DNA of 29,694 nt from a virus (Duplodnaviria > Caudoviricetes). Each line of letters opens with the position of its first letter. Position 1 is the first letter of the stretch. Under the pieces are notes generated by a model. It saw only the letters and a program-made list of their open reading frames with translations. It was not told where the DNA came from and searched no databases. The position numbers and the translations under genes were made by a program. Location: positions 1-29,694 of the IMG/VR virus record IMGVR_UViG_3300017766_001388, one strand, 5' to 3'. Of this stretch, positions 2,662-29,694 are shown in pieces.

Positions 2662-2867
2662 GTCTCTTCATAATGCAGGAAGATGGATATTACGGTAAAG
2701 TTAAGCTACCAAAAGAAGTATTCAAACAATTGGATAGTCACTATTTTATCTCTCGGTGTACCCCAACTGTTAAATTTATGTGTGCTAATGAAGATGAGAC
2801 TCGTCACTTAAACAGTCTTGGTGTAAAAACAATTATTTGTGACTGGTACAAGTTGGAGTGTGAGTAA
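2658..2867 (+). CDS. Hypothetical protein
   Basis: GGAGG SD, GTG start overlapping the upstream stop. Confidence 0.7.
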   Translation: MSLFIMQEDGYYGKVKLPKEVFKQLDSHYFISRCTPTVKFMCANEDETRHLNSLGVKTIICDWYKLECE

Positions 2868-3056
2868 ATGAAACTATTAACAACAATGATTGTCCTATCA
2901 TTCCTAACAGCTTGTTCATCTGTTCCAGATAGTGGATATGTCACACAAGATGATCCTGTTAGGTCAGAGTGTCGAGATGGAGAGTTGTGGGTGGTGAATA
3001 ATAGTGGGGAGTATAACTTAGGAGATAAGTGTGAAGTCTTACGCCCAAGCTTATAA
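2868..3056 (+). CDS. Small lipoprotein
   Basis: MKLLTTMIVLSFLTAC: basic N-terminus, hydrophobic core, lipobox LTAC. Confidence 0.75.
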   Translation: MKLLTTMIVLSFLTACSSVPDSGYVTQDDPVRSECRDGELWVVNNSGEYNLGDKCEVLRPSL

Positions 3057-3267
3057 AGATATATTCGGGGAAGATCTAAAGAGGGATAACTATAAGCTTG
3101 AAGGACACTCTTTTGAATTTAATTCAAGAATAGGTAAATCTGTTTGTAAAAGGTGTGGCTTAGTTTACCTAAAGAATAGTTTTACTGAGTGGAGTGTCAA
3201 GATGGGGTGTTTATCATCTGATCATCCTCAATATGAAAACAAGAGAAAATCTACGGGGTTAAAATGA
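3031..3267 (+). CDS. Small putative Zn-binding protein
   Basis: AGGAG SD; H...CKRCGL...C pattern. Confidence 0.65.
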   Translation: MKSYAQAYKDIFGEDLKRDNYKLEGHSFEFNSRIGKSVCKRCGLVYLKNSFTEWSVKMGCLSSDHPQYENKRKSTGLK

Positions 3268-12360: not shown

Positions 12361-13200
12361 GTGGCTGTTCCTAGTGAAGCAGAAAAACAAAAAGTACAAA
12401 AGAAGCTAGAAGGTTTTCTAAAGAAACTTAATCCTGATGGTAGTCCTAAAAGACCAATGGATGATAATCTTGCCAAAGGTCTTATGAGGGATGCTGTTAG
12501 GAAGAAGTGGATGTATTGGACTATCGTTTCTGAAACGATTCACAAAGACTCTCACGGTAGTCATTATTTGTTGTGTAAGTGTGTTTGTGGTATTGAAAAA
12601 TTGGTCTTCAAACAAGACTTAGTGAGAGGTAAGAGCAATTCTTGTGAAGATTGTGCTAGAGTTTCCGACCCTGAAAAGTTTATCAGTATTAAAAATAAAC
12701 ATGAATTGGTTGGTAGATTACAAGAATTACCTCCATATGTGATTTGGAGGAAAATGCAACAGAGGTGTGACAACCCCAAAGACGCTGGTTACGAAAATTA
12801 CGGCGGAAGGGGAATAACACTTTCTGTTGAATTTAGGGATTACCTAGACTTCATTGATTGGTCTTATTCAAATGGTTACTCATCAGGGTTAACTATTGAA
12901 AGAATAGATGTAAATGGTGACTACTCTCCAGATAATTGTAAGTGGATACCTTTAGGTGAGCAAGCTAGAAATAAAAGAAAGTACAGAAGTAACAAATCTG
13001 GAATTACTGGAGTTAGGTTATCCAGCAATAGTTGGGTATGTTATTGGTACAATGTAAATAGAGAAATGAAAACAAAGTCATTTTCTATAACAAAGTATGG
13101 TTTTGAGGAAGCTAAAATTAAAGCAACTGAATACCGAAAAGAACAAATAACCCTACTAGAAGAGTCTGGAGTATTTTATGGAGAGTTTCATGGGCTATGA
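12361..13200 (+). CDS. HNH/AP2 homing endonuclease with a 52-aa foreign N-terminal segment
   Basis: WTIV...LCKCVCG...GKSNSC, WRKMQQRC...YGGRGI, TIERIDVNGDYSPDNCKW, NKSGITGV, FSITKYG. Confidence 0.85.
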   Translation: MAVPSEAEKQKVQKKLEGFLKKLNPDGSPKRPMDDNLAKGLMRDAVRKKWMYWTIVSETIHKDSHGSHYLLCKCVCGIEKLVFKQDLVRGKSNSCEDCARVSDPEKFISIKNKHELVGRLQELPPYVIWRKMQQRCDNPKDAGYENYGGRGITLSVEFRDYLDFIDWSYSNGYSSGLTIERIDVNGDYSPDNCKWIPLGEQARNKRKYRSNKSGITGVRLSSNSWVCYWYNVNREMKTKSFSITKYGFEEAKIKATEYRKEQITLLEESGVFYGEFHGL

Positions 13201-18314: not shown

Positions 18315-19013
18315 GTGGCTAAAACTTTAGAACTTATAGGGTGTACCTTTGGTCGACTGATAGTGTTGGACTATGCAGAACCTAGATATGGGAAAGGAGG
18401 TCAAAAAGTAGCTAGGTGGAAGTGCTTATGTAATTGTGGGAATACTGAAGAGATTTTGGTCGATAGCGCCAGTCTCAGGTCTGGTAATACAAAGAGTTGT
18501 GGGTGTATCAAAAGAGAGCGTATAACTAAACACGGCCTGAGTAAACACCCACTTTATAAAGTGTGGCATAATATGAAAGAACGTTGTTATAATCCACAAA
18601 GTATAAACTATGGAGGGTATGGTGGTAAGGGGATTACTGTCTGTAGCAGGTGGTTGACATCTTTTGAGAACTTCTATGAGGATGTCTTAGAAGGGTACTC
18701 AAATGGACTAGAATTAGATAGAAAGGAGAATGACGGTAATTATACAATCGACAACGTTCGTTGGGTAACAACTCAACAAAACCAAATGAATAAAGGGAGT
18801 TGGAAAAACAGTACTAGTAAGTATAAAGGAGTGTGTTGGGATAAAAAGACAAAGAAATGGAGGGCTAGCATACAAAAGGATCGTGAAGTTATATATTTAG
18901 GCCAGTTTATTGACGAAAAAGATGCTGCTATAGTTTATAATAAGGCTGCATTGGAATTGTTTGGTGAGTATGCTAACTTAAATATTATCGGTGAAAGAGA
19001 AGCTGTTAAATGA
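18315..19013 (+). CDS. Free-standing HNH/AP2 homing endonuclease
   Basis: FGRLIV, WKCLCNCG, KSCGC, WHNMKERC, YGGKGI, LDRKENDGNY..DNVRW, SKYKGV.W...WRASI...YLGQF (AP2). Confidence 0.9.
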   Translation: MAKTLELIGCTFGRLIVLDYAEPRYGKGGQKVARWKCLCNCGNTEEILVDSASLRSGNTKSCGCIKRERITKHGLSKHPLYKVWHNMKERCYNPQSINYGGYGGKGITVCSRWLTSFENFYEDVLEGYSNGLELDRKENDGNYTIDNVRWVTTQQNQMNKGSWKNSTSKYKGVCWDKKTKKWRASIQKDREVIYLGQFIDEKDAAIVYNKAALELFGEYANLNIIGEREAVK

Positions 19014-25667: not shown

Positions 25668-26213
25668 TTATTCGTAGTTAAAGCTTAAATGTTTATACAA
25701 CGTAATCTGAGCAGATGGGGCAGGCATCACACCTAAGGCTTGTAAAGCAGCAGAAGGAGATTCAGAGATTAAATCTCCACTATCACTCCCTGTACTGCTC
25801 CTAGCGAACATAGTCCTAAGCTTTAATCCAGTAACTCCATACAACACAGCAAAGTCGAAGAATGTTTGTGTTTCTGTCGAATCATCTAAATGGATGTTAA
25901 TTGAATTTCCTATCTTATTCCAAACAATTCCACCATCTGAACTAGATTCAACCCAGAAGAATAGTTTACTAACTCCAGAAGCTCCAACTCTACCAGCCCT
26001 CAGTCTACTCTTAAAAGCTAACGTCCCTGTTTTTAGGAATGTAAATACACCATTTGCATAGTTTATGATAGCACTATTAGAATTTTTATTAGTTCCATAA
26101 CTAACTACTTTTGGTGTGTCTATTGGACTACCTGATTGAGTTACAAGAGAAGTAAAATCACCCTCAGGTACATACCCAGAAAGAAACCCTTCTTGTAATT
26201 CAATAATAGCCAT
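25668..26213 (-). CDS. Hypothetical beta-rich late protein, possibly C1q/BclA-C-like virion protein; may extend to ATG 26267 across a TAG
   Basis: GVFTFLKTGT-type beta strands; last gene of the late arm. Confidence 0.65.
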   Translation of the reverse strand: MAIIELQEGFLSGYVPEGDFTSLVTQSGSPIDTPKVVSYGTNKNSNSAIINYANGVFTFLKTGTLAFKSRLRAGRVGASGVSKLFFWVESSSDGGIVWNKIGNSINIHLDDSTETQTFFDFAVLYGVTGLKLRTMFARSSTGSDSGDLISESPSAALQALGVMPAPSAQITLYKHLSFNYE

Positions 26214-26560: not shown

Positions 26561-26854
26561 TTATTTCTTTATACCTTTACCATCAGTAAGTACCCATAGC
26601 ATGGTATCCATCTTATTATTAATATCTGCTACTACAGATTCTACCCTTTTAATAATCCTGTCTTCCATCACAACAGCATCCTTCTGACTAAAGCTACTTC
26701 CTTGCATTTCATACATACGTGCTTCAAGTTTCTCAATAGATTGATATTGATACATCATCACTAGTGACAATGCTCCTATCGCAACCTTCTCAAGTAATCC
26801 ACTTACCTGTTTCCGTACTTCTGTTCCATCTGCTAAACTATTTTGGTGTGACAT
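26561..26854 (-). CDS. Single-TM membrane protein, holin/antiholin/XhlA-like candidate
   Basis: TM segment VAIGALSLVMMY then coiled coil; likely start ATG 26854. Confidence 0.55.
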   Translation of the reverse strand: MSHQNSLADGTEVRKQVSGLLEKVAIGALSLVMMYQYQSIEKLEARMYEMQGSSFSQKDAVVMEDRIIKRVESVVADINNKMDTMLWVLTDGKGIKK

Positions 26855-27113
26855 TATAAATCTTCTCTTGTTCAATCTTCCATTCTGCAAGCTTATCTAA
26901 AGTAACCTTATATTGTTCAATACATTTCTCATTCCTTTTACTGACAATCATCAATTGCCTAGGAGTAGTGAATTTGTATTGAGCTTCACAAGGATGTACT
27001 AATTGAGACTTATCGGGAAGGATTGGTTTATCTTTATAAATTGTTACTACCTTCGTACAGCCTGATAAGCTCAGGATCAAAAGGAGCATCAATATCGACG
27101 TATTCAATTTCAT
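26838..27113 (-). CDS. Outer-membrane spanin, Rz1-like lipoprotein
   Basis: Lipobox LSLSGC; Pro-rich PILP..HPC; overlaps the 3' end of the i-spanin in another frame. Confidence 0.85.
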   Translation of the reverse strand: MKLNTSILMLLLILSLSGCTKVVTIYKDKPILPDKSQLVHPCEAQYKFTTPRQLMIVSKRNEKCIEQYKVTLDKLAEWKIEQEKIYNVTPK

Positions 27114-27429
27114 CTTGTTTAGTCTCTGTATTAGCTTTAGGGGCTACACACTTAGGTTTGTAATTAAGAAGATCAGAAACAACAACCTCTTCTTCTTTCT
27201 TTAGCTTCAGTAATTCAACGTTTAGATTAAAGATTATATCGGAGGTAACCTTATTAGAAGCTTCCAGTTGTTCTTTACTCAGTACTAAAGACTTATGTTC
27301 GCCTTCCAGCTTTGTATACTTCGTTTGTAGCTCGTTTAGCTCATTCTTAGTACTTTGCCATAGGATAACCATAGAGAGGCTACAAACGATTCCTAGGGCG
27401 CTTATAATCGATAGGATTTTAGTTATCAT
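27034..27429 (-). CDS. Inner-membrane spanin, Rz-like
   Basis: N-terminal TM helix plus long coiled coil; overlapped by the lipoprotein gene. Confidence 0.82.
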   Translation of the reverse strand: MITKILSIISALGIVCSLSMVILWQSTKNELNELQTKYTKLEGEHKSLVLSKEQLEASNKVTSDIIFNLNVELLKLKKEEEVVVSDLLNYKPKCVAPKANTETKQDEIEYVDIDAPFDPELIRLYEGSNNL

Positions 27430-27664
27430 CTAATTTACAACTCTCCTGCTTATCTTCAGCAGCTTCTTGCTTAACAAAGCTACCTACTATACCTAATAAG
27501 GCAAGAACTCCCGTAACAGAAGCCCCCACCCAAAGAGGGATATAGTCAATAAAGGGGACAATAGCTATCATCCCCACAGAAGATATTGCAATCAGAAGAT
27601 GAGTGATGAAACTATAGCGTTTAAGTACAGAGACTATGTAACAATCATCTTTCTTGATTTTCAT
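27419..27664 (-). CDS. Putative holin
   Basis: 81 aa, two TM helices, charged C-terminal tail, directly upstream of the spanins. Confidence 0.65.
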   Translation of the reverse strand: MKIKKDDCYIVSVLKRYSFITHLLIAISSVGMIAIVPFIDYIPLWVGASVTGVLALLGIVGSFVKQEAAEDKQESCKLDDN

Positions 27665-27669
27665 ATCAA

Positions 27670-27930
27670 TTATCCGAACAATGCAAAGCCAGTGATACCT
27701 GTAGCATCAGTGCCTGTATCGAGTAGCCTTTTAATTACCACAGGCCACCGCTCACCATCTGACAAAGTTACAGTGTCAGTATTACCGTCTTCACCAACAT
27801 ATGTTACATCACCACCAACCAATACACGAAAACCATAAGCTTTACCTTCTGGCAAGTCTGTGGAGTCGTTTGGGGTGATTGGGAATGTACCACGAGCCAT
27901 TGCAGACCCAATTAAAATATTTGAAGCCAT
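27670..27930 (-). CDS. Head-spike base protein, RcGTA Rcc01079-like
   Basis: ITPNDSTDL...FRV..GG.V....G...T....GE..PV...R.L.TGT.AT matches my recollection of Rcc01079 (ITPSDSTDL...RVLATGTTAT). Confidence 0.8.
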   Translation of the reverse strand: MASNILIGSAMARGTFPITPNDSTDLPEGKAYGFRVLVGGDVTYVGEDGNTDTVTLSDGERWPVVIKRLLDTGTDATGITGFALFG

Positions 27931-27951
27931 TGTCTATACCTTTTATTGTTT

Positions 27952-27975
27952 AAAGAAAGGCACCCTTAGATGCCT
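27952..27975 (-). terminator. Possible terminator overlapping the fibre stop codon
   Basis: On the - strand: AGGCATC-TAAG-GGTGCCT followed by TTCTTT. Confidence 0.5.
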
Positions 27976-29642
27976 ATCCCAATACTACCACCAAAACCTC
28001 CACCACCGCCTTTAGAAGACCATGAGAATGTTCTAGTTCCTATTGTCACTCTTACAGTGGCTCCATCAGCCCCTGACAACTGGATAGTGTCATTGTTGAC
28101 TAAGGTTCCAGATGTACCTGTAAAGCTACCACCATTTTTACTATACTGCCCACCTACAATTGAGATTGGAGTAGTACCAGCTAAACCTGTGATAGTTTTA
28201 ATATCACTTAATGCTGACAAGGTTACAAATTTAACAGTGTCTGGTTCAGTGTCTGCCACAGTGGTGATTGAATACTGAGTGGTGTATGTTCCAACAGTTA
28301 CATCCAAATCAACAGCAGTACCATAACTTGCACTGGAATTACGTCTAACCCTTAATGTATCGCCATTTGCAATAGTGCCTGCTGTGCTAACGTAACTGCC
28401 ACCATTCTTACTATACAAACCATCTACTATTGTAAGATCAGCATTAATACCACTACCCAAACCTGAAATAGTAATTTCATTGGAAGTGTATGTAGTGTTT
28501 AGGGTTGCATTAGTTACTGCTGTAAATGTAAAGGAATCTGGAGTAGTGTCATCAACAACAGCTCCATCCACAGACAAATCCAAATCGTGGTAATAGGTAT
28601 TTCCATTAGCCATGTGCAGAATTATTTGTTCTGTTCTTGGCAATGATCCTGACAGGACATCAACTCTACTATCGGGCAAAATTGACAAGGTGTTTGGGTA
28701 GTAGCAACGACGAACATCGGCAACCACAATACCCCCTACCACCATGGCAGCTCCGAGGTAATATGGATCATCTGTAATGATTGTTCCGAAAGTTACAGCA
28801 TTCATTCCCGCTGGGGCACTTAAATTACTTACAATGGTGTCACTTGAACCACCTTGAGATAGTGTGAAGGTTCCACTGACAACAGGTAGGTAAGGGTATA
28901 TTTGTGTGTCTACTGGTAATGGCCATGTCCCACTGTATGTTGTACCACCACCTGCAAAGGTAATAGAGGTACTAACACCACCGTGTGATAAAGTACCAGC
29001 ACCATCTGCTGCACCACTACTTGTACCACTAAAAGAACTGTTTGGAACTACAGGGTCAGTGAGAGTGAGAACATCGAAAATAGAGTCAACTGTCATGCCT
29101 GTTACACGACCACCGATTGATGCACAACCGGCATACTCTAGGCCAGTGTAGGTGGTGTTTATTAAATCACTCCCTACTTGAACACCATTTCTTAGAAACT
29201 TAAATGTACCAGTGGTCTTATCCGTACAGCGGATTTCAAAAGTTTGTGAGTAACCTGTACCGTAGCTGGTGAATTCAACTAACTGTGTTGTAAGTGTCCC
29301 TGCAACAACAGTGTAGATTCTAGCTGTTGTACCTGCTTGGTTTAACCAGAGGGAGTACCCATTACCAGAAGAGTTGACTATGCATAACCTAGCAGAGTCA
29401 TTACCTGCTTGAGTTGCATTTATACCGTGCGTAGTAGATGCAAAAATAGTGTTAGAGGTAATAGGTGTGGTATTTACCCACGCTCCTGCTTGCAACCCTG
29501 TACCAGAAAGTCTTTGAAAGTGGTTTGCACCGCCAGATAAAGTAACTTGCGTTGTTTGTGACCAAGCGGGTCTAGTCCATCCTGCGGGAGGCGTATTATA
29601 AGGACTAGCCGCCGTTAGGGAATTCACTAATAAAGTTGGCAT
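27966..29642 (-). CDS. Virion fibre/adhesin, probable head fibre: lectin-like N-terminal domain, Ig-like repeats, Gly linker and IGIGI tail
   Basis: Thr/Gly/Ser-rich beta protein; repeats DTTPDSFTF and DTEPDTVKF, each containing YSKNGGS; ends GGGGGFGGSIGIGI. Confidence 0.7.
   Translation of the reverse strand: MPTLLVNSLTAASPYNTPPAGWTRPAWSQTTQVTLSGGANHFQRLSGTGLQAGAWVNTTPITSNTIFASTTHGINATQAGNDSARLCIVNSSGNGYSLWLNQAGTTARIYTVVAGTLTTQLVEFTSYGTGYSQTFEIRCTDKTTGTFKFLRNGVQVGSDLINTTYTGLEYAGCASIGGRVTGMTVDSIFDVLTLTDPVVPNSSFSGTSSGAADGAGTLSHGGVSTSITFAGGGTTYSGTWPLPVDTQIYPYLPVVSGTFTLSQGGSSDTIVSNLSAPAGMNAVTFGTIITDDPYYLGAAMVVGGIVVADVRRCYYPNTLSILPDSRVDVLSGSLPRTEQIILHMANGNTYYHDLDLSVDGAVVDDTTPDSFTFTAVTNATLNTTYTSNEITISGLGSGINADLTIVDGLYSKNGGSYVSTAGTIANGDTLRVRRNSSASYGTAVDLDVTVGTYTTQYSITTVADTEPDTVKFVTLSALSDIKTITGLAGTTPISIVGGQYSKNGGSFTGTSGTLVNNDTIQLSGADGATVRVTIGTRTFSWSSKGGGGGFGGSIGIGI
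28020..28550 (-). repeat. Two tandem Ig-like domain repeats in the fibre gene
   Basis: Repeat 1 about 28550-28254, repeat 2 about 28253-28020; shared DT.PD, TI.GL, YSKNGGS, GT..N.DT, VT.GT. Confidence 0.75.
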
Positions 29643-29694
29643 TAACGATATACCTCACAACATCTGCGATGGCGCAGCGTGGCATCAGTTGGCA
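29642..29694 (-). CDS. 3' end of an upstream late gene, partial
   Basis: Open frame PTDATLRHRRCCEVYR-TAA with TAATG overlap onto the fibre start. Confidence 0.5.
   Translation of the reverse strand, partial: PTDATLRHRRCCEVYR

Follow-up and report, generated by a model that had tools for sequence, protein, structure and literature searches.

The closest described counterpart of the locus analysed here is the RcGTA head spike, built from Rcc01079 and Rcc01080 (6TB9/6TBA/6TSU/6TUI; Bardy et al. 2020). According to the accessible text of PMC7296036, the Rcc01079 base sits on capsid vertices, and residues 2-10 of the fibre occupy the pockets of the base pentamer as a five-point star, in agreement with the original interpretation of the locus. 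The other solved base is gp40 of Cobetia phage Carin-1 (8CJZ, PQ119497), a phage unrelated to GTAs; the record annotates it as 'head spike base protein; structurally identified and validated', and the product of the next gene downstream, gp39, begins with the usual N-terminal plug (MLGLGLGI). A spike base outside GTAs is thus already known, and the original prediction was mistaken in presenting one as a novelty. The spike base family is known from these two structures, both with N-terminal fibre plugs. What is likely new here is a predicted C-terminal plug on the fibre of an Rcc01079-type spike, an arrangement that recurs in several other phages. A literature search, mainly of openly accessible main texts, found no description of C-terminal spike plugging, and the accessible portions of PMC13450770, PMC12494034 and PMC13317679 contain nothing on plugs.

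The window, by which we mean the whole stretch of 29,694 nt that was analysed, is the IMG/VR virus record IMGVR_UViG_3300017766_001388, which is linear and estimated to be 32% complete. Its plus strand carries genes for DNA polymerase A, primase-helicase, ribonucleotide reductase and ThyX, and its minus strand the end of a late operon. Membership of the GTAs, which are host-encoded defective particles without replication genes, was considered and ruled out by the presence of such genes. The best 25 of 1,126 records matched by the DNA polymerase A are 49-55% identical and come from phages of Vibrio, Shewanella, Klebsiella and Pseudomonas of 96-147 kb. A syntenic relative (locus L427, record G004) carries genes for a major head protein, portal, tail sheath and baseplate wedge, which makes a myovirus the probable type of the window phage. 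It may plausibly be lytic, as had been claimed, but a fragment that is 32% complete does not establish this. Two ordinary HNH-AP2 homing endonuclease genes lie among the replication genes (12361-13200 and 18315-19013), and a 181-aa protein (phrog_3614; 25668-26213, minus strand) at the end of the late operon is kept in L427 and in one Zobellviridae record.

Our main reading, to which we assign a probability of roughly three in four, is that the 558-aa fibre encoded near the end of the window plugs by its last nine residues into a vertex-located pentamer of the 86-aa base encoded next to it.

A spike base and a predicted modular fibre

The relevant features, all on the minus strand, are as follows.

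29642 to 29694, minus: 3' end of the gene upstream of the fibre; its stop overlaps the fibre ATG
27966 to 29642, minus: predicted head fibre, 558 aa, all-beta and modular (ORF, homologues, model)
29082 to 29642, minus: fibre residues 1-187, concanavalin-A-like beta-sandwich, predicted glycan-binding tip (model, Foldseek)
28557 to 29081, minus: fibre residues 188-362, middle beta-sandwich region (21-33% identity in 7/8 relatives)
28014 to 28556, minus: fibre residues 363-543, Ig-like stalk domains (70-80% identity in 7/8 relatives)
27996 to 28010, minus: poly-Gly linker, G545-G549 (sequence; model pLDDT under 50 at 543-558)
27969 to 27995, minus: predicted plug 9-mer, F550-G-G-S-I554-G-I556-G-I558 (4/5 alternate positions hydrophobic)
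27958 to 27975, minus: terminator-like hairpin over the last fibre codons and stop (kept in locus L381, 4955-5015)
27670 to 27930, minus: head-spike base, Rcc01079 family, 86 aa, predicted vertex pentamer (sequence, curated family, fold)
26838 to 27664, minus: lysis cassette of a holin-like and two spanin-like genes, directly downstream of the base (weak matches)

As originally predicted, the 86-aa protein belongs to the Rcc01079 family of spike bases. It scores 54.8 bits against NCBIfam NF048002 (cut-off 28), and its sole phmmer match among PDB sequences at E<=10 is RcGTA Rcc01079 (6tb9, E 3.6e-7). The fold agrees: the model (pLDDT 81.7) has the small jelly-roll of 6TB9 and 8CJZ, and these are its only two Foldseek matches at E<=0.001 (TM 0.75 and rmsd 1.3 over 71 columns for 6tb9; TM 0.70 for 8cjz). 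By analogy with RcGTA, the base would form a pentamer on the capsid five-fold vertices. Its gene lies 35 nt downstream of the fibre gene, and both ORFs were found where they had been placed. The family is large (2,287 clusters at 50% identity). Tandem base genes are present in L016, L028, L030, L037 and L076, and also in L427, where two different ones (2292-2549 and 2806-3063) stand either side of a holin, yet there is one plug-bearing fibre. Ralstonia phage RSJ5 (AB983711; L370, 3968-4213) has an unannotated 81-aa spike-base-like gene after its lysis genes.

The genomic surroundings bear on where the base sits. The fibre/base pair lies inside a lysis cassette (phrog_1356, E 5e-5; phrog_739, E 0.009; phrog_812, E 7e-5; all weak matches), the N-terminal capsid-binding arm is the least conserved portion of the base family, and there is no capsid gene within the 29,694-nt window. 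These observations would suit a base located at another virion site, or in a soluble complex freed at lysis, with C-terminal plugging nevertheless true. We consider this improbable, since both solved members belong to capsid structures (the vertices in RcGTA, the mature capsid in Carin-1), neither window protein starts, by eye, with a signal-peptide-like sequence, and the syntenic G004 encodes an ordinary head together with a contractile tail.

The fibre begins MPTLLVNS and ends KGGGGGFGGSIGIGI-stop; its C-terminal residues are GGGGGFGGSIGIGI, and an N-terminal plug is absent. In the AlphaFold model (mean pLDDT 75.9) beta-sandwiches follow one another along the fibre; residues 1-10 are packed into the fold (pLDDT 84) and residues 543-558 are free (pLDDT under 50). 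No match was obtained in Pfam or NCBIfam; residues 364-471 match PHROGs phrog_4924, and Ig-like repeats are predicted from the model and Foldseek. The lectin-like N-terminal domain that had been proposed is borne out at the level of the model, which shows a concanavalin-A-like fold resembling CBM66 (TM by target 0.60-0.62) and, over residues 1-190, DUF7257 and 3-keto-disaccharide hydrolase models (TM 0.73-0.81); this domain is predicted to bind sugar. As to a possible homology with Rcc01080, approached indirectly, no PDB sequence matches the fibre below E 0.7 and the three tblastn records include no Rhodobacter phage. In relatives, a gene of 490-520 aa stands directly before the fibre gene and is often translationally coupled to it (L005, 4502-6004; L427, 4220-5704; L388, 4973-6436; L381, 1685-3238). 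Its product has no firm family match and, judged by eye, is possibly a polysaccharide-degrading partner.

The C-terminal tail and its proposed docking

The original prediction took SIGIGI as the plug. Its C-terminal position stands, but the plug is better read as the nine residues F550-I558, an alternating hydrophobic/small 9-mer of the RcGTA type with hydrophobic residues at 4/5 positions, a score that an ordinary N-terminus (in L380) also reaches. Of the 67 six-frame window ORFs of at least 60 aa, none but the fibre carries, at its start or its end, a strict run of hydrophobic-Gly-hydrophobic-Gly-hydrophobic. An outer-membrane beta-signal or membrane anchor was considered for the tail and rejected on inspection, there being no signal peptide and no barrel in the fibre model.

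Among 68 fibre homologues, the C-terminal end is of the GGSIGIGI type in 8, GIKRSIIHAIK in 3 and a series of GLTxx-like pentapeptide repeats in 7; the remaining 50 mostly show partial-protein similarity, and two of them start with an N-terminal plug-like run. All 15 reference tail positions are identical in 8/8 GGSIGIGI-type relatives, two of which have one inserted Ser. These eight share ancestry and are not independent, and for one of them (L381) the context was read directly. The N-terminal domain is 7-23% identical in seven of the eight, the other being a near-copy. We infer that the fibre tip is exchanged by recombination, which would alter specificity.

If the window base is assembled as in RcGTA, five copies would grip the capsid pentamer with their N-terminal ends and present five hydrophobic pockets, of which F550, I554, I556 and I558 would fill four, with G552 leaving one empty. 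The peptide would probably run round the ring as it does in RcGTA, and the chain would exit from its first residue via the poly-Gly linker. Only the exit end, and with it the polarity of the fibre, would change; the course of the peptide round the ring need not be reversed. The predicted sugar-binding domain would then point outward on the Ig-like stalk, and the spikes could give reversible first attachment to the host capsule or another surface glycan. If the plug also works C-terminally, the base socket is polarity-blind, and this is how it appears. A complex prediction of an incomplete pentamer (four bases) with fibre residues 529-558 gave a score of 0.03 against a mark of 0.32, which speaks neither for nor against docking.

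The nucleotide sequence of the tail raises another explanation for its conservation, namely that constraints on the DNA or RNA preserve it, through genetic linkage with the base gene on a mobile cassette or through the hairpin that spans the stop codon, and that it plays no part in docking. When the window is compared with L381, 13/15 tail codons are identical and two are synonymous, while the flanks show far more synonymous change (36/87 in the base gene, 20/45 just upstream of the tail). The stem of the hairpin includes the last two codons, for Gly and Ile, and in L381 it has a G-U to A-U change relative to the window. However, it covers only the last 2-3 tail codons and is absent from L427, whose fibre still ends ISLGIGIGFGI, and five other contigs show the same tail chemistry in different wording. 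Conservation for such reasons seems to us very improbable, slightly more so than a base away from the vertices. Terminator-like hairpin sites number 6, against 2.3 +/- 1.7 expected. The hairpin lies between fibre and base, though about five times more base should be required, and it may be an attenuator or a processing site.

Neighbours of base genes

The proposed docking by the C-terminus leads to the question of what other base genes have beside them. Three IMG/VR motif scans listed at least 361 loci, 282 of them with a base and 189 with flanks (134 after 70% clustering). Among the loci listed, a strict run starts 12/112 downstream neighbours of the base and 2/591 non-adjacent genes (p 1e-8). 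The same run ends 2/205 base-adjacent genes and 0/576 non-adjacent ones (p 0.069); it ends 0/617 genes of base-less loci, and the pooled comparison is 2/205 vs 0/1,193 (p 0.021), so that enrichment without prior selection for tails is slim. A looser C-terminal motif is not enriched (7/781 in base loci vs 3/617 in the background). A longer motif within the last 12 aa was found in 4/1,456 ORFs, all adjoining a base, with a chance expectation of about 1-3e-5 per ORF; two of these ORFs were contributed by a scan that had selected for such tails. In these counts an N-terminal plug downstream of the base is the usual layout, and C-terminal tails are rare. C-terminal tails occur beside bases in five further viral contigs.

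In 11 GenBank phage regions with a base, the product of the next gene has a plug-like N-terminus in six (4-5 of 5 alternate positions hydrophobic) and a looser candidate in one; RSJ5, RcMcLean, RHph_Y25 and Cr30 have no plug-bearing neighbour. No C-terminal plug was found among the neighbours inspected in these 11 regions.

The five further contigs are varied. In L020 the C-terminal tail is that of a 452-aa GDSL-like protein (weak Pfam match) encoded upstream of the base; in L059 it belongs to a Laminin_G_3 lectin of 229 aa (E 5e-23) encoded downstream of the base. Neither shares a BLASTP match with the window fibre. L059 shows that gene order and plug polarity are independent, which corrects the inversion as originally described. 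A targeted IMG/VR scan for a tail followed by a base returned 109 matches, five with a base, of which one was incidental and four were real (the L020 contig again, L427, L433 and L475). The fibres of L427, L433 and L475 are distant relatives of the window fibre with differently worded tails. Each of the five tails (L020, L059, L427, L433 and L475) has five alternate hydrophobic residues, which is the number of base pockets. L275 has a weaker candidate tail, LNLSMSLGL, two genes away from its base. A GTDB genome architecture scan, whose pattern covers only some codons, gave 0/13 matches with a base, and an IMG/VR DNA scan for GGSIGIGI-stop gave two matches, both antisense chance and without a base.

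Whether the C-terminal plugs have a single origin was approached through a tree of 37 hand-picked bases, which are short proteins (16/34 branches unresolved). The eight bases with C-terminal plug partners require five changes and form one group in 0/200 bootstrap trees, and C-terminal plugs appear to have arisen several times. The window base clusters (95/94) with two bases that have N-terminal plug partners, and the partner of one of these starts MARLGLGVGL-TRR-GGGGGG, the mirror image of the window tail.

The tail and the base also occur together. Of the nine loci given by a metagenome scan, one is the record of the window itself, three are family members and the other five have the stalk repeat only. 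In L381, a GGSIGIGI fibre with a different tip is followed by a base 35 nt downstream; the L382 contig ends ahead of the fibre tail. L380 and L388 have the same stalk with a GIKRSIIHAIK tail; the genes that come next encode a different protein of 89 aa and a portal. The L005 fibre has GLTxx repeats; no base was found in that record, which is 72% complete, and the next ORF is spanin-like by eye. Fibre-type loci with context thus have a base in the window, L381, L427, L433 and L475, and none in L380, L388 and L005. It had been expected that the tail would be missing where the base is missing, and in loci with readable context the tail does go with the base and other tails do not. In three further fibre/base pairs the two proteins come from contigs of identical length (7225, 8184 and 22756), which gives no more than an indirect hint.

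These results weigh on a further alternative, in which the base is real but its plug is encoded in the remaining two-thirds of the genome or does not exist. The 558-aa protein would then attach elsewhere, on the tail or on the large upstream protein, and its adjacency to the base would reflect cassette shuffling. The window covers 32% of a genome, 4/11 GenBank phage regions have a base without an adjacent plug, PHROGs labels the fibre stalk 'short tail fiber', and sister fibres carry quite different tails, all of which would fit. However, in every locus with context the type of tail agrees with the presence or absence of a base, and unrelated proteins converge on the same kind of tail beside bases. 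The complete genome G008 (100%), which contains L059, has no other strict plug: among 312 six-frame ORFs, with start codons chosen mechanically, a strict terminal motif occurs solely as the L059 tail, and six other ORFs passed the looser test only. We regard this alternative as unlikely, though less so than the two discussed above, and prefer docking of the 558-aa fibre by its last nine residues.

Alternative tails and comparison with known systems

The other tails suggest a wider reading. The 89-aa protein that follows the GIKRSIIHAIK fibres is a candidate alternative socket. It has no match to the base profile or NCBIfam, and its best PDB sequence match has E 0.23. It is unannotated and lies in N4-like head modules (L380, 2700-2969; L388, 8120-8389); in the ESM Atlas its nearest named cluster is XepA (score 0.90, 54% of members), which serves as a lead only. 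XepA is reportedly a pentamer. Two to five GLTxx-like pentapeptide repeats end the sister fibres P0009, P0010, P0012, P0020-P0022 and P0027 and that of L005 (5995-7185). We tentatively suggest, while holding it somewhat doubtful, that one fibre family picks among at least three interchangeable C-terminal docking tags with sockets of their own, and that the Rcc01079 socket accepts either terminus. The tags would be the hydrophobic-Gly plug, received by the Rcc01079 base; GIKRSIIHAIK, received by the 89-aa, possibly XepA-like pentameric socket; and the GLTxx repeats. If this is true, the plug is a nine-residue, two-way tag that places one cargo per capsid vertex. Unrelated lectins and esterases could then be recruited as head adhesins by nine residues at either end, and annotators should inspect the C-termini of genes flanking NF048002 on both sides. 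Such a peptide would also be a minimal display tag, at one copy per vertex, for proteins that need a free N-terminus.

Among other head decorations, T4 Hoc resembles the window fibre in being a monomeric adhesive decoration with N-terminal Ig-like domains and a C-terminal capsid contact. In contrast, the accessible text of PMC7602432 has Hoc binding hexamer centres via a folded domain that is not Ig-like, and neither a distinct base protein nor a short plug is involved. The crAss001 fibre proteins gp21 and gp29 also insert short terminal segments into capsid pockets, but as described in the accessible text of PMC10172136 their anchors are N-terminal, the fibres are oligomeric, the pockets are those of hexons and there is no Rcc01079-type base. 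Carin-1 gp40 shares the base fold with the window protein, and its neighbour gp39, unlike the window fibre, carries the plug at the N-terminus. The RcGTA spike remains the closest relative, with the same base family and fold, adjacent genes, and a flexible fibre, rich in beta structure, that bears a peptide of nine alternating hydrophobic and small residues. The window fibre differs in its long Ig-like stalk and in four rather than five hydrophobic plug positions, and its binding and vertex location are predicted. The reversal that was originally predicted holds: in RcGTA the plug is residues 2-10 and the fibre gene comes after the base gene, whereas in the window the predicted plug is C-terminal, behind a poly-Gly linker, on a fibre whose gene lies upstream of the base.
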